Shown: in pieces, positions 47,643-64,000 of the stretch | Layout of the letters: every line of letters begins with the position of its first letter | Numbering within the stretch: the stretch's first letter is position 1 | Virus record (IMG/VR): IMGVR_UViG_2916515220_000003 | DNA length: 64,000 nt | Strand: one strand, 5' to 3' | Source of the DNA: a virus | Lineage: Duplodnaviria; Caudoviricetes | Made by a program: the position numbers and the translations under genes | The notes under the pieces: model-generated | The model's database searches: none | Told to the model about the DNA's origin: nothing | Seen by the model: the letters and a program-made list of their open reading frames with translations, nothing else

Positions 47643-47702
47643 AAAATTTCACCATAAAAATCAATTGCTTGCACTCAAAACGCTCCGTTGCAGTCGGGCT
47701 TT

Positions 47703-47799
47703 CATGTCGCAGCTTGTTGCGCGCTGCATCCCTTAGTTTCCGGGCATTTCATTCAGGTTACGGCGAATCCGTGCGACATGGATTGCAACATGCAACACG
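47703..47799. repeat. putative integrase arm-type sites
   Basis: TGCGACATG 47772, TGCAACATG 47784, TGCAACACG 47791 and inverted CATGTCGCA 47703. Confidence 0.55.
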
Positions 47800-47834
47800 C
47801 TCTGGCAGGTTCGGAAAAACTCTGGGGGCATTAA

Positions 47835-48149
47835 ATGAAATCACTCTGGCTGCCGGCCGCTTTAATTTTGGTGCTGCTAGTTGGCTTGTTCGTCGTCGGC
47901 GGTGTTCGCATCGTGGTAACGGCACCGAACTATTCCGCGCAGCTTGCTCCGGCCACGCTGATCGTTGCCAATGCCGGAAACCTTAACCTAATCGATAGCC
48001 CGCAAGCGTTCTGTGCTCGTACCGGAAAGCCCGGGAACGACTTCTGCGCCGCTGGTGCTTTGGCTGGCATCATGCAGAACGGAAAGATGCTGATGCGCCT
48101 CCCTTACAGCGAATTGCTTTTTCAAATGTCCGGAGCGCCGGCTAGTTAA
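47835..48149 (+). CDS. membrane-anchored accessory protein
   Basis: N-terminal TM; IDSPQAFC..C motif. Confidence 0.65.
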   Translation: MKSLWLPAALILVLLVGLFVVGGVRIVVTAPNYSAQLAPATLIVANAGNLNLIDSPQAFCARTGKPGNDFCAAGALAGIMQNGKMLMRLPYSELLFQMSGAPAS

Positions 48150-48159
48150 GGAGAAGAAT

Positions 48160-48396
48160 GTGACAGCAAGAATGGATAAGATATTGGCCGCCAAACGTCA
48201 TATCGAGGGACGCCTGGGAGACATAATCGAAAAGAACTTCGATGAATCCGGCGGCGCGCTGGAAGCCGCGGGAACGTTTACCGCGCTACTTGAGGCTTAT
48301 AGGGCCGTAGAGATAGCCGAGATTGGTGAGAAGCAGGCTGAACGCGATGAGAACATGGCCAGCTACACTAGGAACATAATGGGCATCGATAAGTAG
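48160..48396 (+). CDS. accessory hypothetical protein
   Basis: AAGGAG RBS, 78 aa. Confidence 0.6.
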   Translation: MTARMDKILAAKRHIEGRLGDIIEKNFDESGGALEAAGTFTALLEAYRAVEIAEIGEKQAERDENMASYTRNIMGIDK

Positions 48397-48416
48397 ATCG
48401 ACGTGGCTGGGCGGCA

Positions 48417-49442
48417 CTAAGCCGCCCTCATAAACCATCCGTCGAATACCTCGGCGGTCAGCATGTGCATGGGCACGAAGGGGATAACCGCCGGTGTCTG
48501 CCGACGCTTGCGCTTGTCCATCACGAGAATGCATTTGCGAGAGCAATACTTCGCCCTAGCCATCTTCGCTAGGAAGGGGTCACCACAGCAGCCGCAAATC
48601 CTTTCGAATTTCGGAACCCGCAAACTGGCATAGGTGCATTCTTTGCTGCAGAAATTTCCCCTCCCGCCCCACTCGTTTTTAGGCCGGAACACATCCCCGC
48701 AATGGCTGCACGTCCTCTCTTGGATGGTCTTCATGCTCTCGCCCATACAGGCTTTTGAACAGAAGTACTGAGAGGGGCGCTTCGGAAAGAATGGCTCCTG
48801 GCAGACCGCGCACGGCTTAGCGTGGTACTTTCGGTTCGCCTTGTCGCGGCAAATGGTCGTGCAGTATTTCTGGGACACCCTTGAGAACGCGAACGGCTTG
48901 AAGGATATCCCGCACTCCTCGCAAGTTCTCTCTGGCGATGCCTCACGCCTGACGGCCCGATACGCCGTTTCGATGATCGATCGGTCTCGGCAATCTGAAG
49001 CCCTTATCCGGTAAGTGAGCGCAGCCTTCGCGCACACTCCTGAGCAATACTGCCCGTTGCGTTGGCCAAGCTGCTCTTCCTCTGGAAGCGGAACGGCGCA
49101 CCAGCGGCAATAAACGCTGGCCGCATAATAGTCTCGCTGCCCTTGCTCCCATGAGGGGCGAGCGGCGCCAACGGCTTTAATCGCCTCTCCGACCAGCAGC
49201 GCCGCCTCGTGGTCAGAAACCTCCCAGCGGTGCCCTTGAAGGCACAATGCCGAACGTATTCCCGCGCGCGTCGATCCCTCGTTTTCGAAGGGTGAATGAC
49301 GCCAGTCAGACATGATGTCGATCACGTCGTGTATAACATGCCGCCTTTCGTCCTGCTTAAATACCCTTGGGAGTGTAACTGGCTTGGGTTTTCCATGCCG
49401 ATACTCGGTGTACGCTCTGTACATGCTCTTGGTGACCGTCAT
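48417..49442 (-). CDS. multi-zinc-finger protein
   Basis: Five CxxC..F..(Y/F)C(S/T)xxC repeats; no HNH motif seen. Confidence 0.75.
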   Translation of the reverse strand: MTVTKSMYRAYTEYRHGKPKPVTLPRVFKQDERRHVIHDVIDIMSDWRHSPFENEGSTRAGIRSALCLQGHRWEVSDHEAALLVGEAIKAVGAARPSWEQGQRDYYAASVYCRWCAVPLPEEEQLGQRNGQYCSGVCAKAALTYRIRASDCRDRSIIETAYRAVRREASPERTCEECGISFKPFAFSRVSQKYCTTICRDKANRKYHAKPCAVCQEPFFPKRPSQYFCSKACMGESMKTIQERTCSHCGDVFRPKNEWGGRGNFCSKECTYASLRVPKFERICGCCGDPFLAKMARAKYCSRKCILVMDKRKRRQTPAVIPFVPMHMLTAEVFDGWFMRAA

Positions 49443-49810
49443 TTTGCGCCCCCGAATTGAGCATCAAAGAGACCGGCCGTCAGCGGAGCTTTTGATACCG
49501 GCGGGAGAACCTTCACGCCTTCCGGTGCCTGCGGCTGCTTCTTGTAGACCGTTTCGAGATAGGCCTGGTCCATGGCGACGAGGATGGCCACATGGCGCGG
49601 CTCGATCGGCAATGAGTAGATACGACTGTAGGCCGCAATTTCCGCATAAGTGATCGGCTGCGGGCCGTTCATGCCAGCCTGCCGGGTCTTGTGCAGGGCC
49701 ATGAACCATTTCCACAGCAGTTCACCGCCGGCAGGTATTGCCACCATGGCAACACCCTTGCCCTCGAGTTGGCGCTTCAGTTCGGCGCAGAGGAGTTTTT
49801 GTAGGTTCAC
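49439..49810 (-). CDS. gpT-like tail chaperone half, stand-alone
   Basis: LLWKWFMALHKTRQAGMNGPQPITYAEIAAY..VAMDQAYL. Confidence 0.7.
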   Translation of the reverse strand: MNLQKLLCAELKRQLEGKGVAMVAIPAGGELLWKWFMALHKTRQAGMNGPQPITYAEIAAYSRIYSLPIEPRHVAILVAMDQAYLETVYKKQPQAPEGVKVLPPVSKAPLTAGLFDAQFGGAK

Positions 49811-50460
49811 GAGAAGAAAATCTCCGTTGCGGAAAAGCTCCCCTCACGACTGCCCCACGACTTCGGCGCAGTCACGCTGCCGGGATCGATCATCATCAGG
49901 CAGGCTGGCTTTTCGAGATGACCCGTGCATGTCGATGGGAAGTTCTGGGTGTCGAGCGGATACATGATCTCGACCGTGGCAAAGCCGTTGGCATCCGACA
50001 CGGCAGGCTCGATAACTCTGTGCAGGGAGCGCTTCAAAACGCTGGCTCTGACCTCGACATAATCGCCGGGGGTGAAGATGAAACCGGCCGGCAGACCACC
50101 GAGATACAGAGTGTTTGCGCTCACGGCCTGAAAGAACACGTCACCGTTGAAAGCACCGCCCGATGCCTTTGTGCCAGACAACGGTGCCCCGGTGTCCATT
50201 GCGATTGGCCGCGGACGGAATACATCGTAACCAAGGAAGGGCTTGCCCCTGACATCCGCCTTCATCGTGAAAGCATCGAATATCCCGAACAGATGCGTTT
50301 CAAGCCAATGCGTGGCGAGCTTCAGCGTCCAGTACGGCGTACCGAAGGACTGCGATTCCGTCCGCCGTCCTTCCATGCGCGACGAGCTGGCGGGGCTGAT
50401 CGGGTCGAAACTGCACGATGCCCACGGCAGCACCTCGGGTATGATCTCGTAATCGGCCAT
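49807..50460 (-). CDS. Dit-like distal tail protein
   Basis: PYWTLK, FLGYD..RPRP, GLPAGFIFTPGDYV, LEKPACLM; follows tape measure. Confidence 0.6.
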   Translation of the reverse strand: MADYEIIPEVLPWASCSFDPISPASSSRMEGRRTESQSFGTPYWTLKLATHWLETHLFGIFDAFTMKADVRGKPFLGYDVFRPRPIAMDTGAPLSGTKASGGAFNGDVFFQAVSANTLYLGGLPAGFIFTPGDYVEVRASVLKRSLHRVIEPAVSDANGFATVEIMYPLDTQNFPSTCTGHLEKPACLMMIDPGSVTAPKSWGSREGSFSATEIFFS

Positions 50461-52483
50461 CAGACTTCTCCACCGTTCTGTTTGATGTTGCGGGTATCCT
50501 TGTTGTTCTGGGTGACGATTTTGACCGTCTGCCCTTGCGCCTGCTTGAGGATTTCCCCACCAGTTCCGGCGAAAGCTTCACCAGCACCTCAGAGGAGCCG
50601 CCAGACGCGTTTCCAGCCCCGGAGCCGGTAGAACCATTCACCGCCACGCCAAGGCGTCCAGAGCCGTCCCTAGAGAGCGGCATGATTGCCTCCGGTCCTG
50701 CTTCGCCCATCAAGCCAGCACCATCAGCAAAGGCGAACATGGTAGGCTTGCTGACGACCTGATTTGAAAAGCCGTTGATGCCATTGGGGAAAGCTCCACC
50801 GTTGGCGAAGAGGCCCGCGCCTGGAGCGGTCGGGAAAGCGCTCTTGCCGCCGCTGAACAAACCGCTGAAGAGGCTGGAAAAGAAGCCACCGCCACCACCG
50901 CCGCCAGATGCTGCCTTGTTGACCTGAAATATGCTGTCCAGCACATCGTCAAGCATGGTGTCGGCAATGCGCTTGAGGCTGTTCACGGCAACGTCGCCCA
51001 TGGCTTCCCAGAAGCTTTTGCCTTCCTCGATCGCGCTGAACAGGTCATCCAGTCCGGCGCGGGTGAGGTCTCTCCAGTAAAGTCGCCGCTTCTCGGCTTC
51101 GTCCTGAGCTTCCTGCTCCTGATGGATGGCCTCGTTAAGGGCGATGATCTTTCTGCGCTCCTCGTCGGTCGCCGCTGCACCTGCCTGTCTGGAGGCCGCA
51201 GAGGCGCGCTTGGCAGCATCGGACAGGTTGACGACGCGAAGCTCTTCCTCAAGCTCTGCGATGAGTTCCTGAACGGCCTTGCGCTCTCGTTCTGCCTGTG
51301 TGGTGGAAGCCGAGCGAGAGGATTTGCTCGGTGAGGCAGGAGGAGGCTTGTAAGCCGGAGGCGTCCATGTGCTTCCGCCGGTCGGCTTGAAGTTCATCAC
51401 TTCCGGGCGGCTCTCAAGCTCTTGAATGCGGCGATTTTCTTCCGCATCGAGATCACGCATCTTCTGCTCGTGAACGGCTCTCGCTCTGACCTTCTGCCGA
51501 TCGCTCATCCGGTTGTCGGCGGAATCGATATCCTGAAGGGCTTTCGCAGTTTCCTGCTTCTGCCGCATGATGTCATTGATCTGCTTCGTGATCGTACTTG
51601 ATCGCTGCTTCTCGACGGCCCGTAGCGTTTCAAGGAAATCCATCATGCTATCAACGACCGACACGACGGCAGACTTGAGCGTGTTCCCGACGGTCATGGA
51701 AATGGCATTGAACTGCCGGTCAATCTCTTGGGCTTTGGTGATGACGTCATCGGACAGGACGTGCCCGAAATCGTTAGCAGCCTTGATTTGCGCGCGAATG
51801 CCTGCCTCACCTTGGGCGATCAGCGAAACCATGCGCTCGCCGCCAGTGCCGCCGAAGAGTTCGTCAAAGATGCGTATCCCAGCCGCTGTGTCCTTCAGTT
51901 GGCGGGTGCGCTCGATCAGGAGTAGCATAAGCTCTGTCGGATCTTTGAGCTTTGTTTTGACCTCTTCAGGCGTGAGGCCAAGCCGCTGAAAAGCTTCGGC
52001 AGCGCTGCCCTTGCCAGTTACGGCAAACTCATCGGCGCGAAGCTGAAGCTCTTTCAGGCCGTCAGTGATGGCGTCTACCGGAATACGCGCTTGTTCCGCG
52101 ACATACTTCCATTCTTGGAAAGCCTTTGCTGACAGACCTGCCATGCGGGCCTGATCGGCTATCTCGGCTATGCCGTCAGCCACCTGCTTCACAGATCCGA
52201 TCACACCTGCGATGCCGGCTCCGACTATGGTCCCCACAAGGCCTCCTGCAAAAGCCTTGCCGACACCACCTATCTTCGTGCCGACGGTGGCCATGGCCTG
52301 ATTGATGCGCGTGGTTGATCGGATGGCATCCTTCTCCATCTGGTCGGTTGCACGCTTCGAGGACATGGACATCTTGCGGAACTCGCGCTCCGTGGTGCCG
52401 CTGGCCTTCGCCATATTGCGCTCGAGATCCTTGATCCGGGCCTCAAGCATAATCACAAGGCGTTCTTCGTCGGTCTGGCTCAT
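50460..52483 (-). CDS. tape measure protein, ~674 aa (apparent frameshift at 50555-50558)
   Basis: ERLVIMLEARIKDLERNM; FANGG..VSKPTMF..GLMGEAGPEAIMPL; one extra G restores end ELVGEILKQ..GGEV stop coupled to next ATG. Confidence 0.85.
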
Positions 52484-54105
52484 GCGTAGCTCCATTCTCC
52501 GATGTCACCATCGAAATCGTCGTAAGAGGATCGGCCGCTATCGCCGGCAGCGCAGCGGGCAACGGCCATGGCTGTGGCGACGGCGCCATCGATGTGGTCT
52601 TTGCTCTTGGCCTTGTGGAAAGATCGGTTGCCGGAACTGTCTTCGCGGATGGCGATGTTATCGAAATGCCAGCGCAGGATCGGGTGGCCACCGTGCTGGA
52701 ACTGGCGGGAGAGGATCGCGCGCTCAAGCTCGTTGATGGCAGGGGACATCGTGAGCCAGCCCTGTCGGAACTCGACCACGGGCAAACCTTCATCGAGAAG
52801 ATTGTTGATGCTGTTGCGGGCGAGGGCCGGATCGAACGCGATTTCGCGGACGTTGAACCGGGCGCATAGCTCTTTGATGTGAGCCTCTACCGCGTGGTAA
52901 TCGACCACGTTGCCCTCTGTGAGCGTGATGTGGCCTTGTTCCTCCCACAGCGCGTAATTGACGCCCTCACGCGCACCACGCTTCAGCAGATTGTCTCTCG
53001 GCAGGTAGAACCACGGATGGACGGCATAACCGTTCTCACGGTCTCCCCACGCGGCAACAACGGCGGTCAAGTCGGTTGTCTTGGAGAGGTCCACGCCGAG
53101 ATAGCAAGGCGTCTGGTTTGCTTCCAATTCGTCCAAATCTGGACGAAAGTTCCCCTCGTCGTAAACCGGCATGGAGACGAACGGAGACGCGCTGTAATCG
53201 AGCCAGGTGTTGAGATGGTACTGGCGGAAGTTATCGCGCTCTGCGGGCTGCTCTCGTGCCTCGTTCGCCATGGTTCGCAGGCCGTCAATATCAGGGTAGC
53301 CATCGGCAAGGCCGGGATTGACGAAGTGCCAGAGGTCTTCGTCCTGCCAATCTGCATCAGGCTCGGTCTCGAAGAGCACCGGCAGGAAGCGAGGATCTTC
53401 AATCTCTCCAGACTGTACCCGGCGCGCATATTTCAGGCGCTCATAGGCGAGGTTCTCCTGTCCTCGGCCCGCTTGGGTGATGATGATCAACAGCGAGCCG
53501 GTCGTCTTGTTCAGCGAGGTTCGAAGCGCGGCCCACATGGTGCGGGCAATCTCGCCCTCCCAGTTGATCAACTCGTCAGCCAGCACGAAGTTTGCCGTCT
53601 TGCCGAGCTTGCCCCGCTTGGCCGATGCCAGCGCCCGGAACTTCGCCTTGCTCAACCTGTGCTCAAGGACGAACGTGCTTTCGGTTGGCTTCATCTTCTC
53701 CTGAAGCCACTCGGTCTCGTCAACGATGCTGACAGCCTCATCGAAAGCGATCCTCGCATCTTCCTCTGCCGAGCCGGCAACGAACACCTGACCGGACGGA
53801 ACGCGCTCGTAGCCCACTGTATGGAGCAATGCGAGGCCTGCGCCCATGGTGGTCTTGCGCGCACCACGCGGGAGCAGGATGAAAACGGTCTTCACCTGTC
53901 GGCGGCCATCGGGGAAACATGGGCCATAGATGCGGCGCACGATGCGCTCCCAGAACAGCGGGAGGTCGAATTTGCCGTCTTCGCTTTTCGGGTGATTGAG
54001 GGCGCGGAGAAACTGCACCGCTTTCTCACCCTTGCCGAACGGGTCTTCAATCTCGCTGCCGTCGAAGATCCACTCCGGGCGGGTTGCCTTAAACTGTGAG
54101 ACCAC
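52480..54105 (-). CDS. terminase large subunit (HK97-type, cos)
   Basis: PRGARKTT, VLADEL, ITQAG, GVDLSKTTDLTA, IDGAVA. Confidence 0.95.
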   Translation of the reverse strand: MVSQFKATRPEWIFDGSEIEDPFGKGEKAVQFLRALNHPKSEDGKFDLPLFWERIVRRIYGPCFPDGRRQVKTVFILLPRGARKTTMGAGLALLHTVGYERVPSGQVFVAGSAEEDARIAFDEAVSIVDETEWLQEKMKPTESTFVLEHRLSKAKFRALASAKRGKLGKTANFVLADELINWEGEIARTMWAALRTSLNKTTGSLLIIITQAGRGQENLAYERLKYARRVQSGEIEDPRFLPVLFETEPDADWQDEDLWHFVNPGLADGYPDIDGLRTMANEAREQPAERDNFRQYHLNTWLDYSASPFVSMPVYDEGNFRPDLDELEANQTPCYLGVDLSKTTDLTAVVAAWGDRENGYAVHPWFYLPRDNLLKRGAREGVNYALWEEQGHITLTEGNVVDYHAVEAHIKELCARFNVREIAFDPALARNSINNLLDEGLPVVEFRQGWLTMSPAINELERAILSRQFQHGGHPILRWHFDNIAIREDSSGNRSFHKAKSKDHIDGAVATAMAVARCAAGDSGRSSYDDFDGDIGEWSYA

Positions 54106-54514
54106 TTGGCGCGCCTCCCTGTTTTACTGGCTTTTCAGCAAAACCCTGCTTCGATCGGGCAGCCGGTGTTAGGCCGAGCTCTGCCGACATGCGGGCAACG
54201 GTCTCCTGCGCCTTGGACATCAGGCCAGAGGCTGGGTTCGGCTTGAGATTGCCGTGAGCTGTCTTTGTGAGGATGCCATGCTCCTCGATGGCCTTCTGGC
54301 ATTCGCGCACGGTCCAGATCGCAATGAGGTACGCTTCAAGCAGTCCAGTCATGGATGCGGTCAGGATTTGCCGCTGCACCATTTCGGCGGCGATGATGTT
54401 CCACTCCTCGACCATGACTTCCGGCAAATTTGCCGAAGGTTTCGGAACGCCCTTCAAACCGCCGTCGATGGCCTTCAGCGTGGCCTTTGCTCCGCGTGTC
54501 CCTTTGCTGCTCAT
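54089..54514 (-). CDS. terminase small subunit (P27 family)
   Basis: LEAYL..I.EHG..KPNPA..AELGLTPAARSK. Confidence 0.9.
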   Translation of the reverse strand: MSSKGTRGAKATLKAIDGGLKGVPKPSANLPEVMVEEWNIIAAEMVQRQILTASMTGLLEAYLIAIWTVRECQKAIEEHGILTKTAHGNLKPNPASGLMSKAQETVARMSAELGLTPAARSKQGFAEKPVKQGGAPSGLTV

Positions 54515-54828
54515 GCGGACACCTTGCGTTCACAGCGCAGGTCCAGGCCCTTACGGCGGCCGATCTCTTTGACCTCGCGGACGTTGTATTCCTCGCCCTC
54601 GAAGATGATGCGAGACTTCGGAGCGACCGCGCCAAAGTAGCGGGTGCGGAAGATGATGGACGTGGTGTCGCTGGCGCCGTTGGTCAGATACTCCTCTGTG
54701 CTGCTCTGGATGATCTGGGCGCGCACGGTGGCGACATCGGTCCACGTCTCGATAGGCGTGCCGTAGTCGTTCACGGTGCTGGTGAAGCTCTGGACGGTAA
54801 TAGAGCGATCGAGCTTTCCGGCTCTCAT
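54511..54828 (-). CDS. head-closure protein (SPP1 gp16-like)
   Basis: MRAGKLDRSITVQ..YNVREVKEIGRRKGLDLRC. Confidence 0.85.
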   Translation of the reverse strand: MRAGKLDRSITVQSFTSTVNDYGTPIETWTDVATVRAQIIQSSTEEYLTNGASDTTSIIFRTRYFGAVAPKSRIIFEGEEYNVREVKEIGRRKGLDLRCERKVSA

Positions 54829-54846
54829 GGCTGCACCGCCTTCCGG

Positions 54847-54940
54847 TGCGGACCACGGTCCGCAGTAGCAAATCGGCAATTATTGCCGTTTTCAAATCCG
54901 TCAATTTGGCGATTTTCAAATTCGGAATAATTCCGCATTT
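54847..54940. repeat. 24-bp-period array of distinct palindromes
   Basis: CAAAT-[15-nt palindrome]-(T/A)TTT units at 54869, 54893, 54917, plus an 18-nt palindrome at 54847. Confidence 0.75.
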
Positions 54941-54942
54941 GC

Positions 54943-55353
54943 TCACACCTCCTGCACAAGTGCGTCGATGGTGACGATGGCGTGGCTGGTCTTGCCGTCT
55001 GGATCGCGAAGGAAGCGGGAACCACGGACACGGCAGTCAGCGAAGTGGAAGCCGTCCAAATCCGTCAATTTGGCGAATTTAATCGCACTCCGAATTGCTC
55101 CTGAAATACGCTTGCTGATCTCTGTCGATGGCTCCTCGACCCAGACATGCAGGTCCATGTAAACCCGTGTCAGCGTGCGGGCGATGCTGTCGCCTTCGTC
55201 CACGCTCTGGCCTTCACCGATGACGATGGATGGGCGCGGGTTGGGGCGCTCGTTGCGGTCGAGGATGTTGGCGGCCGGGACCAAACCAGTGACGGCGGCG
55301 GCACCAGTTAACCTCACTCGGATGGCTTTCTGCAGGGCGAGTTCAGCGCTCAT
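54943..55353 (-). CDS. tail terminator (DUF3168)
   Basis: ELALQKAI..L, PSIVIGEGQ, LHVW, RDPDG.TSHAIVT. Confidence 0.85.
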   Translation of the reverse strand: MSAELALQKAIRVRLTGAAAVTGLVPAANILDRNERPNPRPSIVIGEGQSVDEGDSIARTLTRVYMDLHVWVEEPSTEISKRISGAIRSAIKFAKLTDLDGFHFADCRVRGSRFLRDPDGKTSHAIVTIDALVQEV

Positions 55354-55769
55354 CGGCCACCCCAATTCTGCTTCACAGCCTTGGCAGCGGCGCGCTTGAT
55401 GCGGCCCGTTATCTTCTTGCGGAGCAGACGGAAGGCGGGCCAGAAATACGGCTGCGCTGCGGCCTCCTGCGTGCCGTACTCTACGAGGTGCGCATACCTC
55501 ACATCCTCGTTTCCAGCGGTCACAGCCACGGCCAGTTCTGGCACCGTGACGCGACCACCGGGCGTGGAGTATGGCGGGGTGTTCGATCCACCCGGCGTGA
55601 CCGTGATGCTCTCCTGCAATGCGCCTGTGTCCCGTGGTGCGAGGATGCGGGCTGTTACCGCCAGATCGTTGCCTGACTTCACCAGCTCCGGCACCATCGC
55701 GGCACGGACGTTCTTCGGGATCATTGCCAGCCGCTGTTTGATGCGACCAATTCCACCATCGTCAGCCAA
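55350..55769 (-). CDS. HK97 gp10-like tail completion protein
   Basis: APRDTGALQESI, YAHLVEYGT..AAQPYFWPA. Confidence 0.9.
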   Translation of the reverse strand: MADDGGIGRIKQRLAMIPKNVRAAMVPELVKSGNDLAVTARILAPRDTGALQESITVTPGGSNTPPYSTPGGRVTVPELAVAVTAGNEDVRYAHLVEYGTQEAAAQPYFWPAFRLLRKKITGRIKRAAAKAVKQNWGGR

Positions 55770-56119: not shown

Positions 56120-56192
56120 TTGAGAAATTTTTCGCACGTGCCACCCCGCGCCGGTCCCCCGATGTAGTCGAAAGTTCTGACCCACCCCCGGT
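56120..56192 (-). other. putative cos packaging site
   Basis: Minus strand CCGGGGGTGGGTC..TTT..GGGGACCGGCGCGGGG..GCGAAAAATTT, typical layout of HK97-family cos regions, right after an HNH stop. Confidence 0.6.
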
Positions 56193-56653
56193 CATGATGC
56201 ACGCGCTCTCTCGCCTCTGAGGCGCTGGGCGGTCTTGCTGTAGACGGACATGGCTGCTGCCTCGGTGCCGTACCATCCAAGCTCTATGCGCTTGCCCTCA
56301 TGGGTGATGCGTGCCTGATACCTGTTGCCCTTGCGACGGACGCCCTTGAATGGCTTGTTCACCTCATTCTGGGAGCGCGTGGCATGGCGTAGGTTGTCCC
56401 ACCTGTTGTCGCTCTGCATGCCGTTCTCATGGTCCACCTCATGGGTAGGCCAGTCACCGGTCATGAGCAGGTAGGCAAGACGGTTGGCTCGGTAGTGCTT
56501 GCCATCGATCTTAATACGCCAGTACCCTTGATCGTTCAGGCATCCAGCCACGTCACCAGCCTTTGCCCTTGGCCCCTTGGTCTGCTTCCATGTGAAGACA
56601 CCCGTGTCAGGGTCATAGGCGAGGATGGATGCGACGTGGCTGTAGCTGATCAT
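56192..56653 (-). CDS. HNH homing-type endonuclease with AP2-like C-terminus
   Basis: YDPDTGVFTW, GYWRIKIDGK.Y.A.RLA, VDHENG..SDNRWDNLR, KGV..YQARI..LG.Y. Confidence 0.9.
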   Translation of the reverse strand: MISYSHVASILAYDPDTGVFTWKQTKGPRAKAGDVAGCLNDQGYWRIKIDGKHYRANRLAYLLMTGDWPTHEVDHENGMQSDNRWDNLRHATRSQNEVNKPFKGVRRKGNRYQARITHEGKRIELGWYGTEAAAMSVYSKTAQRLRGERARAS

Positions 56654-56656
56654 GGC

Positions 56657-57142
56657 TCAAGCCTCCGCATCAACACGCACCACGTTGCTGTTGACGCCAA
56701 GGGAGGCGTTCAGCTTCATGACGCTGTTGGCTGCATCGAACTGTTCGGACTGGCTCATGACCTTGGCGATGAACAGACGTTCGGAAGGGGTGCCGCCTGC
56801 CGGTGCATCGTTGAGAACGATCCTGAACTCGAAGTCGTGGATGGTCTTCTCTGCGGCGATGAGAGCCTGCTGACCGGGATCGGAATAGTCGATGCCCATG
56901 ACTAACTCCATCGTGCCGGCAGAGCGTGGGCCTTTCAGGGTGCGTGTGCGGCTGTCACCGATCGAGGTGAAGTTGATGGCTTCGCTGGTATCGCCCACGG
57001 AACCGAGACCTTCGACTTCTCCGATCTCCTTCCATGTAACTGCATTGGCAGCAGAGAAGTCGGCAAGCACGAAATCTGCCTTCTTCTGTTCCTTCGTGGT
57101 GCCGATGTAGATTTTCGCACCGGCCGTCGCGTTGATGGTCAT
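56657..57142 (-). CDS. major tail (tube) protein
   Basis: WKEIGEVE.LG.VGD, RTRTLKG.R.AGTM, DPGQQAL.AA, LGVNS. Confidence 0.8.
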   Translation of the reverse strand: MTINATAGAKIYIGTTKEQKKADFVLADFSAANAVTWKEIGEVEGLGSVGDTSEAINFTSIGDSRTRTLKGPRSAGTMELVMGIDYSDPGQQALIAAEKTIHDFEFRIVLNDAPAGGTPSERLFIAKVMSQSEQFDAANSVMKLNASLGVNSNVVRVDAEA

Positions 57143-57500
57143 TTGCTTGTCCTTTCAAGGGAGCGCCGTTCATTCGCGGCGTCGATGGCGTTGCACCTCT
57201 GGCAACCCGGCTTCCAGTTGGATTTGACCATGCGCAGGTCTGGGCGCTGACGGATGCTCTTGATGTGCATCACGACGATTGCCTTTTCCCCGCACTGGCA
57301 GAACTCGTTTTGAGGAAGGGAGAGGAAAGCCTTGGCCTCCCTTTCCCATGTGCTGTCATAGCCACGCTGGCGGGCGCTGGGGCGCTTCTGGTCGTGGCGG
57401 GCTTTGCGCTCCCTCTGGATGCGTGCAGCCGTCTGACAGGTCTCACCACGGGGATGAGCCTTGTTGCAGTGTCCGCAGACTGAGGGGCGCGTGTCGGCAT
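57139..57500 (-). CDS. terminase-associated HNH (HK97 gp74-like; apparent frameshift at 57484-57487)
   Basis: One extra C gives MPTRAPSVCGHC..RPSARQRGYDSTWE..CQCG..H..NWKPGCQRCN. Confidence 0.75.
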
Positions 57501-57501
57501 A

Positions 57502-57888
57502 TCAGGCCACCGGACGCTCTGCGGCGTTGCCCTTGATGGCGATCACGCTTGCGAAGATCGATGTGCCGCTGCCCTTCGTCAGGACCGGCCGCACATAGCG
57601 CTTGAAGCCGCGATAACCGACCTTTGCCGTGCTGTCGGCTGCGAGGTTGCCGGATACCGGCGCCTGGTAGTGATCAGCATCCACATCGGTGAATGTGGCG
57701 TTATCGTCGCTCTCCTGAAGCTTCAGCGTGAAGGCTCCAGACGCGGTGCGTGCGCCAGTCGTGACCACGAAGGCCACGCTGTCAAAGCCCAGCAGGTCGA
57801 CGGATGAACCGTTGGTGCTGGCGGCGATGTCGGCAGGCGCAATGCTCTGCACGACACCAATATTGTGAACGATGTCACGCATGGTCAT
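57502..57888 (-). CDS. head decoration-like protein
   Basis: VDLLGFDSVAFVV, LQESDD..FTDV, VGYRGFKRYVR; follows capsid. Confidence 0.7.
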   Translation of the reverse strand: MTMRDIVHNIGVVQSIAPADIAASTNGSSVDLLGFDSVAFVVTTGARTASGAFTLKLQESDDNATFTDVDADHYQAPVSGNLAADSTAKVGYRGFKRYVRPVLTKGSGTSIFASVIAIKGNAAERPVA

Positions 57889-57894
57889 TCCTCC

Positions 57895-59034
57895 TTAGGC
57901 GGTCGCCATCTTGAGTTTGCGGAGTGCTTCGGTGAGGGTCGGGCCACCACCGACGCGGCGGCGGGCGTGGAAGCGAACCATGCCCTTCGTCGCCTGCGTG
58001 TACGGGTCGCGCAGCACCGACATGCCAACGCGGTCATAGACGCGGTATGCCTTGCTGAAATCGCCGTAGAAGATCGGGAACGTGCCGTTTGCGATATCCG
58101 GCATGGTCGGGTCTTCGATCACCGGGCGACCGAGCAGCGTGGACGGCTGGCCCGCCTGATAGGATGGCTGCCAGAGGTAATTGCCCTGACCGTCCTTGAT
58201 GGTGCGGACCTTGCCGAGCGTGGTGCCGTTCATCAGCCAGGAGCCGTTGTTCCGGTATGCAGCCGGCAGCGAGTACATCAGGCCGATAAGCTGGTCGGCG
58301 CTGATATTGGTGGCGTGGCCGTTAATGACTTCCGCGATGCCCGTAACCTGCTGGATGCCGAGCGGCTTTTTGGCGCCGTTGCCATTCGAGAATGCCGCGT
58401 TCTCCTTGAGGGCGAACTCCTGCGACAGCTCGGAGGCGATTTCGGATTCGACGTTGATGGCCGAGTCTTCGAGCAGGCGAAGCGACACGTCGATGTAACA
58501 GGCCAGTTCATGGACCGGGATTTCGATCTGACCATAGGTCATGGTCGTTTCGTCGCGTTCCTCGTCTTCACCTACCCACGAGGCGGTCGGGCGGCCGGTG
58601 AGCTTCGGGAGGATGACGGAACCGGCAGACGTGGAACCGACGCGGACAGCCTGCCGGATCGGAGAGATTTCCACGATGCCGCGGATGACTTCGGTCTGGA
58701 ACTCGGCAGGAGCCAGATAGCCGCCCTTCGTATCGTCGCCTACGATCAAGGCGCGGGTTTCTTCCGGGTCCATGCGGTTATCGCCCAGGCGCAGGAAGTT
58801 GGAGAACGCGCGGCGCTCCAACGAGATTTCGTCTTCGCCGGGTGTGCCAGCGCCGCCGGGCCGGTTCATTCGGGTTTCGAGGTCGGCAAGCTGCGTGCGC
58901 AGTTCGGTGATCTCGGCTTCGGAGCCGGTGCGATATTCGGCAAAGCCGGTGCGCAGCTCTTCGACGGCCTGCGTGGCTGCTACCAGCGGGTCATCGTCCG
59001 GTTCGGCTCGGGTTTCGAGGGTGAAGTGCTTCAT
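57895..59034 (-). CDS. HK97-family major capsid protein
   Basis: GGYLAP.EF, A.WVGE, S.RLLEDSA, GNG.KKPLGI, KDGQGNYLWQP, LLGRPV, GDFS. Confidence 0.95.
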   Translation of the reverse strand: MKHFTLETRAEPDDDPLVAATQAVEELRTGFAEYRTGSEAEITELRTQLADLETRMNRPGGAGTPGEDEISLERRAFSNFLRLGDNRMDPEETRALIVGDDTKGGYLAPAEFQTEVIRGIVEISPIRQAVRVGSTSAGSVILPKLTGRPTASWVGEDEERDETTMTYGQIEIPVHELACYIDVSLRLLEDSAINVESEIASELSQEFALKENAAFSNGNGAKKPLGIQQVTGIAEVINGHATNISADQLIGLMYSLPAAYRNNGSWLMNGTTLGKVRTIKDGQGNYLWQPSYQAGQPSTLLGRPVIEDPTMPDIANGTFPIFYGDFSKAYRVYDRVGMSVLRDPYTQATKGMVRFHARRRVGGGPTLTEALRKLKMATA

Positions 59035-59037
59035 TGG

Positions 59038-59583
59038 TCATTTCCCTTTGCTGACGAGAGCGCATTTCGCCTTCCGGCATGCATTGATGAAGGCCGCTGC
59101 GCTCTCGGTAGAGCGGCCAGAACTGCGGATTGAGGTGATCCGGGCATTCGGTGCCGATGGCATGCCCACGAGGGAGATTTCGCGCACGTCGATGCCGGTG
59201 AGGATGCGGGTGCCTGCCTGACGCGTCTCACCGCCCTTGTTCAGGCGGAAGCCGATCGAGAGACCATTCAATGCGTCAGCCTTCAGAAGCTCGTAAGCCT
59301 CCCGGCCTCGCGTCGTGCTGGTGACGATTTTCCCGCGAACGAAAAGGCCCTTCTCGTCTTCACGGATTTCAGTCCATACGCCGATGATGTCAGTCGGATC
59401 GTGCGACCAGAGCATAACTGGCCGCGTGCCGGCCTGCCGGTGCAATTCCAGCGAAGTCAGGAAGGCACCGCGCTTGACGACCTCGTTATGGGCGTTGCGC
59501 TGGTCCCAGATGACGGCATAGCCGGAGAACTCGCCGGTATCGCTGGGCGCCTCAAATCTGAGGGAAAGGTCGAGGTGATCCAT
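59038..59583 (-). CDS. HK97-family prohead protease
   Basis: FSGYA, MLWSHD, IGVW, GLSIGF, EISLVGMPS. Confidence 0.95.
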   Translation of the reverse strand: MDHLDLSLRFEAPSDTGEFSGYAVIWDQRNAHNEVVKRGAFLTSLELHRQAGTRPVMLWSHDPTDIIGVWTEIREDEKGLFVRGKIVTSTTRGREAYELLKADALNGLSIGFRLNKGGETRQAGTRILTGIDVREISLVGMPSAPNARITSIRSSGRSTESAAAFINACRKAKCALVSKGK

Positions 59584-59975
59584 CAGGCCGCCTCGCTTCG
59601 GAAGTTGGCACGATCAGCGGCGAAGGCGTCGGCCTGCTGCTGTATCCATGCGACCTGCAGAACCTTGACGACAGCGGCATGGCCAAACTTGGCGTTAAGG
59701 CCGAAGTCGGCGGCGATGTCCCAGTTGATGACGCACCGGGCAAGGCAGTTAATGCGCGCCTTCTCGCGGGCTTCGAATGACGCCTTGCCATCCACGTCAG
59801 CGGCGGCGGCCAGCTCGTCCATCATGGCGATGCGGGCCTTGTTCTGCGTCTCGCTGTCAGGACCGGCAATGAGAAGGCGAAGGCCCGTCGGCTTGCCATC
59901 CCACGGGTCCACGACTTCCAGCCAGCGGCCTTTGTCCTGGTCGACAAGGTTGGAGTTGATCTCATCAAGCGTCAT
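59583..59975 (-). CDS. gpG-like tail assembly chaperone, displaced between portal and protease
   Basis: P.DGKPTGLRLLIAGPDS, LARCVINW, WIQQQADAFAADRANF. Confidence 0.65.
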   Translation of the reverse strand: MTLDEINSNLVDQDKGRWLEVVDPWDGKPTGLRLLIAGPDSETQNKARIAMMDELAAAADVDGKASFEAREKARINCLARCVINWDIAADFGLNAKFGHAAVVKVLQVAWIQQQADAFAADRANFRSEAA

Positions 59976-61212
59976 TGGGCTTAGGCTCCTTGTCGGTTTT
60001 CAAAGGGTCGGCACCGTCCTTTTGATCAGCGGGCAAATTTGCCTTCTGGTCGTTCGGATTGATGTGCGGATTGCCGTACTCGTTGCCACCCTCGTATGGT
60101 CCCAGATCGAGCCACCCACGGGCTTCGTTCGGGTTGAGCACCTTGGCGCTGATGAGCGTGGAAATCGCTGTGGCGCGCGATGTCAGGTCAGCACGGGTCA
60201 GGTCGTCACGGTCGAAGCTGATGCGGTAGCGCTTGCGTTCATCGCGGGAGAGCAGCGCGCGGCCAAGGGCGGTTTCGAGAGCGCGCAGCCAAGGCTCCAG
60301 CGTATAGGTCAGGAACTCCCGGCCCATCTGCTCGGAATTGCTCCAGGTGGCGCGGTCGAGTTCGAACAGCATGGAAGGCGGGACGCGGAAGGCGCGGGCA
60401 ATCTCGATGATCTGGAACTTGCGCAGTTCAAGGAACTGGCTGTCCACCGAGTTGAGCATCAGCTGCTTGATATCGGCGTCATCCCAGAGGACCGCAGCCT
60501 TGCCGCTGTCTGCCGGCTGGCGGAAGGCTTTGCGCCAGCCGGCGATCATCTTCTTCGCGCCTTCATCACCGAGCGACTTCTTGTTCAGGATCACGACGCC
60601 AGGCGTGGCGCCATTCTTGAAGAAGTTGGAGGCGTGGGTTTCCATCACCTTGGCCGCGCCGATCGCTTCGGCCGCGAGAGTGAGGGGCGATTTGTCGAAC
60701 GGGCCACGGACGTGCACCACGTTTTCAGACTTCACGATCTGGCCGTTGATGCGGTAGGTCGGTTCGCCGGTCCACGGATCGAAGGTAACGCTGATGCCCT
60801 GCGGCTGGTATCGGATGATTTCGCGGATCTCGCCGCGCACGCGGTTCACGTAGGCAAGGCCGCCCCAGTCACGGGTGAGGGCGTCGGCCGCCAGATCGCG
60901 GATAAGGTCGAAGCCGGCGGACCACGGATTGACATCACCGCGGAGCAGCGCACCGATCGGGTGATTGCGATCCTCTTCCTCGGTGCCGTCCTCGCGGCGT
61001 TCCATGATCCTGATATCGAGGGTGGCGGCGGCTTCCGATATGACCCTGACCGCATTGGCCACGGCAGGGACGCGCAGAGCTTGAGCGCCAGAGATTGCCA
61101 CCGTGCCGGAAGCCATGCCCGACCACAGGGCAGCGAGAACGCCGTCCTCATCCTTGAGGTTCTCGTCTCGCGTCTCGATCTTTTCGGTGCGTTTGAAAGG
61201 GTTCCAGCTCAT
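59965..61212 (-). CDS. HK97-family portal protein
   Basis: ALRVPAVANAVRVISE, FFKNGATP, DSQFLELR, IARAFRVPP, SNSEQ, NPNEAR. Confidence 0.95.
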   Translation of the reverse strand: MSWNPFKRTEKIETRDENLKDEDGVLAALWSGMASGTVAISGAQALRVPAVANAVRVISEAAATLDIRIMERREDGTEEEDRNHPIGALLRGDVNPWSAGFDLIRDLAADALTRDWGGLAYVNRVRGEIREIIRYQPQGISVTFDPWTGEPTYRINGQIVKSENVVHVRGPFDKSPLTLAAEAIGAAKVMETHASNFFKNGATPGVVILNKKSLGDEGAKKMIAGWRKAFRQPADSGKAAVLWDDADIKQLMLNSVDSQFLELRKFQIIEIARAFRVPPSMLFELDRATWSNSEQMGREFLTYTLEPWLRALETALGRALLSRDERKRYRISFDRDDLTRADLTSRATAISTLISAKVLNPNEARGWLDLGPYEGGNEYGNPHINPNDQKANLPADQKDGADPLKTDKEPKPNDA

Positions 61213-61282
61213 GGGCTGGAATTTCCGCCATCACAGCGGAAATGTGTATCGGAGAGAATGGGTTAGTCTGGGTTTGTTTATG

Positions 61283-61519
61283 TTACGCTCGAAAGAAGGC
61301 CAGCAAGTCCCCTTCGTGCGCGCAATATCGCCCCCCAATCTGCTTCACGGGGCTGCCTTCGACCTTGGCCAGAGTATCACGGACAAAATCCGCTGAGACA
61401 CCGATCCGGGCTGCAATGGCTTCGGCGGTCCAGATGATCCGGAACGGGTTGCCGGTATCGTTCGGCTTGCCGGCGAGAATGGCGTCGAGCCGTGATGCTG
61501 TCAGCTTCGGTTGGTTCAT
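61283..61519 (-). CDS. small winged-HTH DNA-binding protein (possible late regulator)
   Basis: IWTAEAIAARIGVSADFVR..PVKQIGGRYCA..DL; directly upstream of portal. Confidence 0.65.
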   Translation of the reverse strand: MNQPKLTASRLDAILAGKPNDTGNPFRIIWTAEAIAARIGVSADFVRDTLAKVEGSPVKQIGGRYCAHEGDLLAFFRA

Positions 61520-61676
61520 GCGCACGCTCCGTTGAACGTCCGTTGAACGTCCGTTGCCGACATCCGTTGATTTTTCACGAGAATTTCGCGCCGAAAATTC
61601 GGAGATAATTTCGCCGTCATTGCCACCTGATGCAATGATACCAAAGGCTTGCGATTTCCATGGTGTTTCCAAACCA

Positions 61677-61880
61677 TCACGACGCGCCTCCTGGTCGGTC
61701 AATCCCGCAGATTTCATCCATGGCCGTGATAATGTCCATGATCGTGGCGTACTCACCAACGCGATAACGTTTTCCGTCCTTGAAGTGCTCCAGTATGTGG
61801 ATTTCCTTGCCGGTCGTCTCGTCAACATCACGACCGATAAACATGCATTCCTTGTCTGGAAACTGTGCGATGTCGCTCAT
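61677..61880 (-). CDS. hypothetical protein
   Basis: Coupled small ORF. Confidence 0.55.
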   Translation of the reverse strand: MSDIAQFPDKECMFIGRDVDETTGKEIHILEHFKDGKRYRVGEYATIMDIITAMDEICGIDRPGGAS

Positions 61881-62059
61881 GCCACGTTCCTTTCGCGGCG
61901 GAATGCATGAGTTATAACCTGACCGTTGATCTGCGGCGGCATCCGGCCATCGAGCATACTGCGGACAAGCGCCTCAACTTTCCGCTCAAAGCGCCAGCGG
62001 CTGTCGATAACGTTGGAAGGCTTGTTATCAGCCCATGTGAACAAATCGAGTTGCGTCAC
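61877..62059 (-). CDS. hypothetical protein
   Basis: QLDLFTWA..; coupled to rep stop. Confidence 0.55.
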   Translation of the reverse strand: MTQLDLFTWADNKPSNVIDSRWRFERKVEALVRSMLDGRMPPQINGQVITHAFRRERNVA

Positions 62060-62883
62060 GCTGCTGCCTCCTGCTTCGGTCCAAGCATATTGTTTGCCAG
62101 TCTCAGAGTGAGAACACCCATCTTAAGCATACTCATCAGTCGTGCTCGGAGAATGGTGGCTCCTGGCCGACCTGCGCAGATTTGATCCATCATGGCTTCC
62201 GCCTCTGCGTCGCTCTCTGGGATGGGCAACGGCAACGTTTCTTCATCGCCTATTTGATCAGGAGAATACCCCTTAAGAGGTTCTTCCACTTCATAGAGAG
62301 AATCTCCAAGGTATCCTCTATGGTATTTGTCGGTAGATTCTACCGGGACATCCTGGTAGTTACTACCGGGACATCCATTTTCAGGGGTGGTAGATTCTAC
62401 CGGGACATGAGCGGATTTCATGTTTTTACGCCTCCGCTCTTCCTTCTTTCGCTCTGCATCCTTCTCGCTCAGATACTCGGCGGCTTCCCGAGTGTGCATT
62501 TTAACGACCTCGGCACGTGGGTTTTCCACATGGTACCGAACGCAGCCGTCTTTGGTGGTTGTTCCGGTGGTGACGAGGTAATGGTTATCGACCAGAAGCG
62601 CCCGCGCATTGCGGGCGGTCCTGTCTGACTTTATACCACCCCGCGCCATCAGGGTCAGTGACGAAGCGTAAACAGAGGTCGGCTTCAAGCTTACTTTATC
62701 GACCTTGAGAAAGGACAGATAAACGACGATTGCTTGGACGCATGGCGCTCCGTGCAGCTTCGGATCTGCCGCGACGGTTTCAATGGTCTTGAGTTTGAAT
62801 GCCACAAGCTGGCTACACGCGACCTGATATGGCGACCGCGTGTCTTCAATGATCTCGCCATGCTCGGTGATGTACTCGCTCAA
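62056..62883 (-). CDS. replication initiator-like protein with internal iterons
   Basis: wHTH-like LMARGG..RTARNARALLVDNHYL; repeats in linker; TTG start overlapping upstream stop. Confidence 0.65.
   Translation of the reverse strand: MSEYITEHGEIIEDTRSPYQVACSQLVAFKLKTIETVAADPKLHGAPCVQAIVVYLSFLKVDKVSLKPTSVYASSLTLMARGGIKSDRTARNARALLVDNHYLVTTGTTTKDGCVRYHVENPRAEVVKMHTREAAEYLSEKDAERKKEERRRKNMKSAHVPVESTTPENGCPGSNYQDVPVESTDKYHRGYLGDSLYEVEEPLKGYSPDQIGDEETLPLPIPESDAEAEAMMDQICAGRPGATILRARLMSMLKMGVLTLRLANNMLGPKQEAAA
62332..62408. repeat. three 20-bp iterons (putative origin)
   Basis: GGTAGATTCTACCGGGACAT at 62332 and 62389; GGTAGTTACTACCGGGACAT at 62355. Confidence 0.8.
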
Positions 62884-63047
62884 CCGAACGCCCTCCGGTT
62901 CTGGCGATACTGGTTCGCCAAGGTGAGTGCCTGGGCGGCTTGCGCCGCCGTCAGGCTGAAAATGTTCTGAAGCAGGGCCAGCTTGTTCGGCAGGTCGTGC
63001 GGTTGCTCTGACAGCCACATGGCGGCTTTCTCGATGGGTGTGGTCAT
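62880..63047 (-). CDS. small hypothetical protein (not in ORF track)
   Basis: 55 aa MTTPIEKAAMWLSEQ..FSLTAAQAAQA..RRAFG; TGATG coupled. Confidence 0.65.
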   Translation of the reverse strand: MTTPIEKAAMWLSEQPHDLPNKLALLQNIFSLTAAQAAQALTLANQYRQNRRAFG

Positions 63048-63262
63048 CACTTCCTCCCCAGCACATGAAGGCGTTGCAATTCCCTCGCCACGTCTTGCAG
63101 CGAGAGTTCGTAACGAGCGCCGGCAACAACGGTATCGGGAGCAATCTCGGTCAGCATGTAGCCGCCGAAATTATCCATGCCCTCGGCCTTGCGGGACTTG
63201 TGGAAGTCGTAGCCGCTTTCGCGGGCGAGCTTCTTGAGGCGGGCTTCGGGGTTCAGGCTCAT
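63047..63262 (-). CDS. hypothetical protein
   Basis: EARLKKLARESGYDFHKSR..DNFGGYML; coupled. Confidence 0.65.
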   Translation of the reverse strand: MSLNPEARLKKLARESGYDFHKSRKAEGMDNFGGYMLTEIAPDTVVAGARYELSLQDVARELQRLHVLGRK

Positions 63263-63555
63263 TGAACGCTACCTCCTTCGTCAGGTATCAGGGAGACAAG
63301 GCGACGGCCTTCTCGAAGGAGCGCAAGCTTGAACGTGTTGCAGGCGATCTGGATGTCGTTGTCGCAGGTGCCGCCGTCTGTCAGGTGGTCCTGAACATCC
63401 TTCACGGCGGCTTCGATCTCCTCTTCGAGGGCATGAAGAGGCAGATCAAACATGACCGCTTTCTGGAAGAGTAAGCGGCCAGATGTCTTACCGATCTCCT
63501 CCAGCTTTGCCATGCAGAGCGCTGTGAGTTGCTCGCGGGAAAGGTTGTCGCTCAT
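63259..63555 (-). CDS. hypothetical protein
   Basis: Coupled ORF with GGAGG RBS. Confidence 0.6.
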   Translation of the reverse strand: MSDNLSREQLTALCMAKLEEIGKTSGRLLFQKAVMFDLPLHALEEEIEAAVKDVQDHLTDGGTCDNDIQIACNTFKLALLREGRRLVSLIPDEGGSVQ

Positions 63556-63794
63556 AGCCCGCACCCTCCATAGATACGACCGACGCTGTAGTCACCTTCG
63601 TCACCGTTGAAATCATGCTCGTCACCGTTCGGCTCGCGCTCGTCGTCATATTCCCGATCCTCCATTTCGGGATAGGTATCTGCCAGATAGGGCTCAAGGT
63701 TCTCGTCGCCATCGACGAGGTCGAGGAGGGCGACCAGTTCCTCGATTTTCGCTTCGAGGCGGGCGCGGGTGATTTCCAGAGGGGACTGTCTCAT
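63552..63794 (-). CDS. acidic hypothetical protein
   Basis: RARLEAKIEELVALLDLVDGDENLEP.. Confidence 0.65.
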   Translation of the reverse strand: MRQSPLEITRARLEAKIEELVALLDLVDGDENLEPYLADTYPEMEDREYDDEREPNGDEHDFNGDEGDYSVGRIYGGCGL

Positions 63795-64000
63795 GCGAAA
63801 GCCTCCCCAAGCTCTTCCACACAGTCCCTGATGACTTTAATTCGGTCATCGATCTCTTCAGACAGGGCCTGAAGCGCGTTGACCGCGAACGTATCTTTCA
63901 CATCACTGCAGGCCATGAAGAGCGCGCGGTTAAGGTTCTTGGCGGTAATGATCATGTCTGCAATTTCGAGCAGCTTGTGCTTCGCGTCGGTGGCGCTCAT
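63791..64000 (-). CDS. hypothetical protein
   Basis: 69-aa ORF at window edge, coupled to next gene. Confidence 0.55.
   Translation of the reverse strand: MSATDAKHKLLEIADMIITAKNLNRALFMACSDVKDTFAVNALQALSEEIDDRIKVIRDCVEELGEAFA

Follow-up and report, generated by a model that had tools for sequence, protein, structure and literature searches.

The last part of a 64,000-nucleotide stretch of viral DNA (IMG/VR record IMGVR_UViG_2916515220_000003, Caudoviricetes; hereafter the window, equivalent to G000:C1:343084-407083) carries an integrative element of ~18.8 kb which encodes its own head, packaging, neck and tail shaft proteins, and in which no hub, fibre or lysis gene could be recognised. The element lies downstream of a plus-strand tRNA-Cys (GCA) gene (47569-47642, located with ARAGORN), its integration target, the 3′ part of which together with one further base forms a 45-bp repeat (attL, 47599-47643). 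An earlier reading, made from the sequence alone, had placed a minus-strand element at this tRNA end; on extending the contig (positions past 64000 continue the window's numbering) we found a second, exact direct copy of the repeat outside the window (attR, 66371-66415, or L001 2371-2415) together with an integrase gene. The repeats are 18,772 bp apart and the element thus closes at 18.8 kb (47599-66415). The tyrosine integrase (65138-66310, plus strand; PF00589, E 2.7e-18) adjoins attR and overlaps an Arc-like gene (64710-65138, plus strand; PF03869, E 1e-12), and beyond attR lie the host genes for a PCMT methyltransferase, a DUF2497 protein and valyl-tRNA synthetase.

Pfam and PHROGs searches of the element's open reading frames (ORFs) gave the gene identities reported here, and matched the minus-strand gene list of the sequence-only reading from the portal through to the zinc-finger protein. 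The late operon, wholly on the minus strand, begins with the portal (59965-61212), a 130-aa tail assembly chaperone-like protein (59583-59975; phrog_313, E 4.9e-10, a family also matched by the chaperone of a siphoprophage resident in the same genome, described below), a prohead serine protease (S78; 59038-59583) and the HK97-fold major capsid protein (57895-59034; PF05065, E 1.9e-90). These are followed by a 128-aa protein that is possibly a head decoration protein (57502-57888; phrog_5707, with a weak Bbp16-like match below the Pfam cut-off), a small HNH endonuclease (57142-57501; phrog_144, E 4e-10), the tail tube, or major tail, protein (56657-57142; phrog_158, E 2.5e-20) and an HNH_3 endonuclease with an AP2-like part (56192-56653). 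The latter is an insert that varies between loci; none was detected at the corresponding position in seven relatives (L003-L009), in four of which (L004, L005, L007 and L008) the gap between tube and connector is shorter than 200 nt. A gp6-like head-tail connector (55762-56079), an HK97-gp10-like neck or tail component (55350-55769), a gp17-like tail completion protein (54943-55365) and a head completion/closure protein (Phage_HCP; 54511-54879) lead to the terminase genes terS (Terminase_4; 54089-54514) and terL (52480-54105), behind which come the tape measure (50300-52495; phrog_10574, E 2.7e-137), the distal tail protein Dit (49807-50460; phrog_1302, E 3.7e-32), a second tail assembly chaperone (Phage_TAC_18, hereafter TAC18; 49439-49810, E 1.7e-13) and, as the last gene of the operon, a 341-aa Cys-rich protein composed of repeated CxxC...CxxxC zinc-ribbon units (48417-49442).

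None of the element ORFs tested matched a hub/Tal, fibre, holin, endolysin or spanin family in the Pfam and PHROGs scans, in agreement with what had been noted by eye. Nor do such genes lie past the end of the window: between 64000 and attR there are only the Arc-like gene, the integrase and small ORFs, and no tip, fibre, structural or lysis gene. A hydrophobicity scan of all ORFs of at least 35 aa left a 104-aa cargo ORF on the plus strand as the sole membrane candidate that is not antisense, and detected no membrane ORF in the late operon. Measured against the kit of an autonomous siphovirus, consisting of Dit, Tal/hub and receptor-binding protein, this copy is therefore incomplete, with Dit only.

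The sequence-only reading described the genes as coupled and not decayed, which holds only in part, as this copy has single-nucleotide deletions in two genes that are intact in relatives. The small HNH protein of relatives is intact, ~120 aa long and starts MPTRAPSVCGHC; here one base is missing from a C run after about codon 6, and the ATG at 57500 is out of the HNH frame. In the tape-measure gene one G of a G run is missing relative to the related locus L034, so that the frame changes 33 codons ahead of the natural stop, a stop that would adjoin the start of Dit. As assembled, the ORF is thus 731 aa long instead of the 674 aa first given for it, overlaps Dit by 160 nt, and has the conserved last 33 residues in another frame. 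Both deletions may be assembly errors, since both fall in G/C runs and G000 is poor in long runs of this kind (runs of at least 7: 2.9 per Mb, against ~34 per Mb across related loci totalling 237 kb, a ~10-fold difference), and since a C run just outside the element (L084:19340, ~66639 in extended window numbering) is one C short in G000 compared with the assemblies X2, X3 and X5. Decay of resident copies does nevertheless occur, as the two 'organism A' strains X2 and X3 carry a derivative shortened to 7.9 kb, in which L084 positions 315-2573, 10713-10991 and 13747-19101 (window positions are those of L084 plus 47299) are joined, the retained parts being without mismatch and nearly all structural genes lost.

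Recurrence and ancestry of the gene order

A search of species genomes with the capsid protein gave ten loci, seven of which (L003-L009), from Shinella, Rhizobium, Allorhizobium and other Rhizobiales, have the same order from portal to Cys-rich protein, with protein identities of 30 to 90% and with L008 cut within the tape measure. Of 401 genomes sampled from the order, 9 were found to contain the Cys-rich protein, and the full gene order was met again in two other families of the order (L025 and L026), so that it is present in nine other genomes. L026 is bounded by 48-bp repeats at a tRNA-Arg gene, 17,307 bp apart; its small HNH gene is intact, the other remaining ORFs are for an Arc-like protein, an excisionase-like regulator and an initiator of O-like type accompanied by iterons, and its full ORF inventory gave no match to a tip or lysis family. 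In L005 a tRNA-Cys gene adjoins the same end of the element as here. Judged by position, other tRNA genes are found within a locus or at its end in three variant or remnant cases: tRNA-Ser in L002, tRNA-Met in L011 and tRNA-Lys in L010.

IMG/VR lists elements of this kind as viral genomes of ~15-20 kb, and a search of it with TerL gave 36 loci. Twenty-five of these have the full run tube-connector-gp10-gp17-closure-terS-terL-tape measure, and five are short contigs consistent with the run from tube to tape measure. The others comprise a variant order connector-gp10-tube-gp17 (L054), an internal deletion (L063), three loci in which no tail gene was detected with the queries used (L056-L058) and one unrelated locus (L067). 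The order first seen in this single stretch is thus no isolated arrangement, nor is it the product of a one-off deletion in a normal siphoprophage, as the relatives share both the order and the absences. Among isolated phages, no record covered at least 80% of the query in a tape-measure search; the best TerL identities among the matches listed were ~34-36%, with none reaching 60%, and no isolated phage with this architecture was found.

Several further observations concern the spread of these modules. On the TerL tree L054 groups closely with L056-L058, the loci without detectable tail genes. The capsid proteins of L033, L036, L041, L044-L046, L049, L051 and L053 are 31-49% identical to that of the element, against 80-98% in the others, and the presence of two head-module types on one backbone, with tube, neck and terL staying similar, indicates module exchange. 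In L027, L028, L029 and L031, from other genera, proteins homologous to the Cys-rich protein's N-terminal part are encoded 3-4 kb from a distant terL (22-24% identical), which may mark further packaging islands. Another locus of G000 itself (C1 ~1,139,700-1,143,200) holds portal, protease and capsid homologues, the capsid being 36% identical.

The origin of the order is suggested by more distant relatives. The capsid-forming kind of phage-inducible chromosomal island (cf-PICI), reportedly described by Alqurainy et al. in 2023, offers the closest frame. Across the class, TerL matched 7 of 401 genomes at E 1e-100 or better, and three loci with TerL 45-57% and capsid 49-54% identical (L092, L093 and L094) have the order portal-protease-capsid-decoration-...-terS-terL, with no tail-gene match in tblastn searches with the element's proteins, only L092 having been annotated in detail. 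In L092 the genes run primase-helicase-portal-protease-capsid-decoration-adaptor-x (a 129-aa ORF)-terS-terL-integrase-tRNA-Glu, and its gene content marks it as a head-only island of cf-PICI-like type, the backbone of which is ordered in the same way. By this comparison the apparent scramble of the element has the look of a cf-PICI-like frame into which tail genes have been set at three points: one chaperone gene follows the portal, the HNH and tube genes follow the decoration gene, and terL is followed by the tape measure and TAC18. The TerL tree mixes loci that have detectable tail genes with loci that do not, with five changes, at least two of which are forced by well-supported branches; the basal branch is long and the tree does not separate gain from loss of the tail genes. 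Calls of 'no tail genes' are those of tblastn with this element's proteins, and L010 and L057 have long unassigned ORFs after terL.

Tape-measure C-termini, Dit and resident prophages

The content of the slot between terL and TAC18 was compared in the 30 loci holding both genes. In 21 of these the slot contains a tape measure only (632-902 aa) and no Dit; Dit is present beside the tape measure in two loci, and Dit together with a homologue of a 195-aa tail protein of the G000 siphoprophage in two more, the 196-aa protein beside Dit in L047 being 80.6% identical to the prophage protein. Unrelated ORFs occupy the slot in two loci, insertion-sequence-like ORFs in one, and the tape-measure frame is fragmented in two. 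Since the tape measure stands alone in the 21 loci, Dit is accessory, and the conserved core is a tail shaft without a tip. In L040 (12341-17026) two tandem copies of a pair of insertion-sequence-like ORFs (499 and 244 aa) interrupt the tape-measure gene.

The siphoprophage of G000 lies at C1 ~296.4-322 kb (L012 and L072), beside a tRNA-Met gene, and encodes a full tail tip. Its genes run terL, portal, capsid, tube, chaperone, a 710-aa tape measure, Dit, a 96-aa ORF and the 195-aa tail protein, continuing with a 134-aa DUF6950/NlpC-like protein, a 937-aa fibre protein, a 548-aa fibre and an endolysin. Pfam missed its 96-aa and 195-aa proteins, as it did the Dit of prophage and element alike and the element's small HNH protein. 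The stretch of the prophage that resembles the element's tail genes is at ~308-313 kb, some 30-35 kb upstream of where the window begins, with identities of 29% over 111 aa for the tube, 49% for TAC18, 29% over 271 aa for the tape measure and 60.6% over 218 aa for Dit, and the element's head, portal, neck and terminase proteins found no match in it. The sequence-only reading had looked to a siphovirus, not to the myovirus next to the element, as donor of a tip, and a resident siphoprophage with so similar a Dit, hub-like proteins, fibres and an endolysin fits that expectation. Recent recombination between element and siphoprophage was considered and rejected, the sole DNA similarity being 66.7% over 736 nt, in Dit and the 3′ end of the tape-measure gene.

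Resident prophage tape measures were sought in other genomes with the last 250 aa of each element's own tape measure (in G007 and G333 with full-length queries). G401 has one at 41% identity, G403 two at 46% and G404 a partial one at 38%; the prophages of G403 and G401 encode Dit and large fibre proteins, and in G401 an endolysin was weakly matched. Among elements, tape measures align from residue 1 to ~640; with the tape measure of the co-resident prophage the alignment is confined to the last ~240 aa and stops no more than 8 residues short of the end. Such a C-terminal alignment was obtained in all three cognate pairs, with L034 standing in for G000, and in none of six non-cognate pairs, and over the last 40 aa the cognate pairs share 25, 30 and 15 residues, compared with 6-12 in non-cognate pairs. 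The Dit of the element is 60.6% identical to that of the co-resident prophage in G000 and 51.7% in G401, while between the two elements the identity of Dit is 28%. At the level of sequence similarity, the tape-measure C-terminus (in three genomes) and Dit therefore resemble those of the co-resident siphoprophage more than those of sister elements.

The satellite model and its rivals

The element is probably an integrative phage satellite of cf-PICI-like ancestry, which would make its own head, packaging machinery, neck and tail shaft and obtain the tail tip and lysis functions from a helper. From the comparisons above we infer helper dependence, assembly on helper tips, induction, packaging and release. 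In the proposed pathway a helper siphovirus is induced or infects the cell, the candidate being the resident siphoprophage, and the element would excise via its integrase and replicate from its iteron origin, with unit genomes packaged into its own heads by terS/terL and the small HNH protein. Its own tube would be polymerised around its own tape measure, started on tip complexes made by the helper, with the tape-measure C-terminus, together with Dit and sometimes part of the hub where present, serving as an exchangeable adaptor to the helper's tip; its own tube and tail completion protein would keep the tails matched to its own neck, and particles would be released by the helper endolysin. 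In lambda-type assembly the tape measure joins the tip complex by its C-terminal part before the tube polymerises, and the tracking of the local prophage by tape-measure C-terminus and Dit would fit such a step. We consider the chances evenly balanced that these elements represent widespread alphaproteobacterial 'tail-tip piracy' satellites, whose helper specificity is set by a swappable tape-measure C-terminus, to which Dit and a hub part may or may not be added, and which satellite finders have missed.

Several points weigh against this model. A resident helper is not general, as no second tape-measure-like gene was found in three of the seven genomes examined (G402, G007 and G333), two of which (G007 and G333) are also without a phrog_1302 Dit. 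The tape-measure comparison for G000 used L034 as proxy for a frameshifted copy, and as the search that revealed the prophages used the tape-measure C-terminus of the element itself, the cognate comparison is biased, the non-cognate pairs being its only control. The 341-aa Cys-rich protein and several small ORFs are without an assigned function. With two frame-breaking deletions in G000 and the 7.9-kb remnant in other strains, this copy may be inactive. The sequencing runs listed with this DNA are contigs, none of them of RNA, and neither a circle nor an empty-site junction was found in four of them, which has no bearing on excision.

The likeness to cf-PICIs raises an alternative in which a satellite of that type takes whole helper tails, and keeps tail genes of its own for interference or for escape from tail-targeting defence. 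The likeness lies in several features: both are integrative islands with an integrase and no lysis genes, the element having a putative regulator and replication module; both have the HK97-type set of terS, terL, portal, protease, capsid and adaptor/connector, the accompanying HNH having a candidate in the small phrog_144 protein, frameshifted here and intact in relatives; and the nearest outside relatives of the element are without a tail-gene match, L092 being a head-only island. The intermixing of TerL relatives with and without detectable tail genes agrees with this alternative, as does the precedent of the PICI-like elements (PLEs), which replace only tape measure, chaperone and hub, coupled to a tail-assembly inhibitor (PMC12987554). 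The element differs from cf-PICIs, however, in encoding a tube, a tape measure, two chaperones, a tail completion protein and, in some cases, Dit or a hub part, in having terS-terL at the end of the operon instead of before the portal, and in having no AlpA Pfam match. What makes whole-tail capture unlikely is that the family conserves the full equipment of a shaft (tube, tape measure, two chaperones, gp17 and the gp10-like protein) and no single decoy, and that helper tails would need to fit a foreign neck, the head and neck proteins of element and siphoprophage being unmatched and their tubes sharing 29% over 111 aa.

We give little credence to the idea of an autonomous, very small temperate siphovirus with tip, receptor-binding and lysis proteins too divergent to recognise, for instance the 341-aa Cys-rich protein or the small ORFs. 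In its favour, the element has every other virion function, a number of its ORFs match no family, and IMG/VR lists such elements as viral genomes of ~15-20 kb; yet in 21 of the 30 relatives no ORF, not even Dit, lies between tape measure and TAC18. The Cys-rich protein, conserved across the family, is not tail-tip-like: it consists of zinc-ribbon repeats, its leads are only to zinc-ribbon, HNH or NinG-like proteins, with HNH/NinG-type clusters as its nearest structural neighbours, and by tblastn it is also matched directly after terL in L058, a locus without detectable tail genes. The late operon holds no membrane ORF, and the largest unassigned ORF of the element (362 aa) contains iterons.

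A decaying or domesticated prophage remnant, possibly GTA-like (gene transfer agent) and no longer self-transferring, is very unlikely: the two frame-breaking deletions, the 7.9-kb derivative in two other strains and the loci deleted or interrupted by insertion-sequence-like ORFs (L011, L063 and L040) speak for it, but dozens of loci, at 30-98% identity, keep the same order with intact ORFs; the elements have att repeats, an iteron origin and an integrase; insertion is seen at tRNA-Arg in L026, where att repeats bound the element, and at tRNA-Cys here, a tRNA-Cys gene being adjacent in L005 as well; occurrence is patchy; and the two deletions, lying in G/C runs of G000, are plausibly errors of assembly. 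GTAs of the RcGTA type are ~15-17 kb head-tail clusters of Alphaproteobacteria with a canonical gene order, their own Dit, hub and central fibre, and lysis functions encoded elsewhere; they are not known to have an integrase, att sites or a replication module, and are inherited vertically. Unlike these, the element has an integrase, att sites and iterons, lacks hub and fibre, and has its marker in 9 of 401 genomes.

Placed among known satellites, the element adds to a principle that is not itself new. The cf-PICIs are described as taking whole tails (PMC10085698, de Sousa et al. 2023; He et al. 10.1101/2025.02.11.637232), and the legend to an extended-data figure of PMC12987554 (Nature 2026) notes putative tmp genes in some of them. 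The same paper describes for the PLEs of Vibrio cholerae and its phage ICP1 chimeric tails built of a PLE tape measure, chaperone and hub with the ICP1 tube, sheath and baseplate. From this account PLEs resemble the element in that a satellite encodes part of the tail pathway (tape measure, chaperone, sometimes hub) and mixed satellite/helper tails result, and differ in parasitising a lytic myovirus and in taking capsid, tube, sheath and baseplate from it. Compared with them by description, the element supplies head, neck, tube and tape measure, and would take a siphovirus tip and lysis. A December 2025 preprint (PMC12822802) states that tape measures are not known in satellites except in EPIPs and in a report on a PLE. 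The EPIPs of Mycolicibacterium, as described there, share with the element terS, adaptor, stopper, capsid and tape measure, and have a tail length unlike that of the helper, but differ in having no other tail proteins such as tube or chaperones, a serine integrase and an actinobacterial host.

Comparison thus supports the earlier suggestion of a satellite that borrows a tip and lysis functions, while the claim of a distinct class has to be tempered, given the cf-PICI-like backbone and the chimeric PLE tails and cf-PICI tmp genes already in print. Chimeric satellite tails as a principle are already published (PMC12987554). What appears to be new is a family encoding the whole shaft and head and lacking only the tip, the occurrence of such satellites in Rhizobiales and, judging by alignment, an exchangeable module of tape-measure C-terminus and Dit matched to co-resident siphoprophages; in the literature searched we found no description of a satellite with tube, tape measure, chaperones and terminator together. 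SatelliteFinder treats any tail profile as a forbidden component (PMC10085698), and a tail-bearing satellite family would then be rejected by design, leaving a blind spot in detection. If the model is correct, the split of virion parts between satellite and helper could fall anywhere along the particle, the known splits being at the head-tail joint (cf-PICIs) or inside the myovirus baseplate (PLEs). It would also provide a natural system for the recruitment of tape measure and tube to a foreign tip initiator, and a candidate gene-transfer vehicle in soil and plant-associated Rhizobiales, in which almost nothing is known of satellites according to a 2026 review (PMC13486102).

Early module, cargo genes and neighbouring prophages

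Upstream of the portal lies a 182-aa ORF (61283-61831, minus strand), the C-terminal part of which is conserved in relatives; it has neither a Pfam nor a PHROG match, and its L026 counterpart belongs to phrog_66 (excisionase/transcriptional regulator). No AlpA match was found by Pfam among the element ORFs. The 362-aa putative replication initiator (62056-63144, minus strand) is the largest ORF without an assignment and holds three 20-nt iterons at 62332-62408, within the gene. The sequence-only reading had named a rep gene with iterons; the iterons are confirmed, the protein itself gave no Pfam match and only a weak Atlas lead to HTH_36/RepL-type clusters, and the L026 counterpart, also with iterons, matches an O-like initiator. 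Small early ORFs without a family match occupy 63047-64000 on the minus strand, in a module running on past the window. At the other end of the element two plus-strand cargo ORFs (47835-48396), of 104 aa with an N-terminal membrane helix and of 78 aa, have a match to phrog_37309, of unknown function, and tblastn with the element's proteins gave no match to either in the relatives searched.

The borders of the siphoprophage were not found. Identical 77-nt tRNA-Met genes lie at 17433-17509 of the window and at C1:296407-296483, 64.1 kb apart, with no tRNA-Met repeat within 70 kb downstream of the second copy. The prophage adjoining the element (~19300-43800 of the window) has terL, portal, sheath, tape measure, baseplate hub and wedge genes, and is thus a myovirus, as the sequence-only reading had it. 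Its endolysin (42721-43800) is identical to that of the siphoprophage at 355 of 359 positions. Between the region of this endolysin and tRNA-Cys there are three ORFs (41220-42578 on the minus strand and 44183-46563 on the plus strand), two of them without a family match; the third, of 550 aa, has a Laminin_G_3 (ConA-like) domain and may be a fibre or cargo gene.

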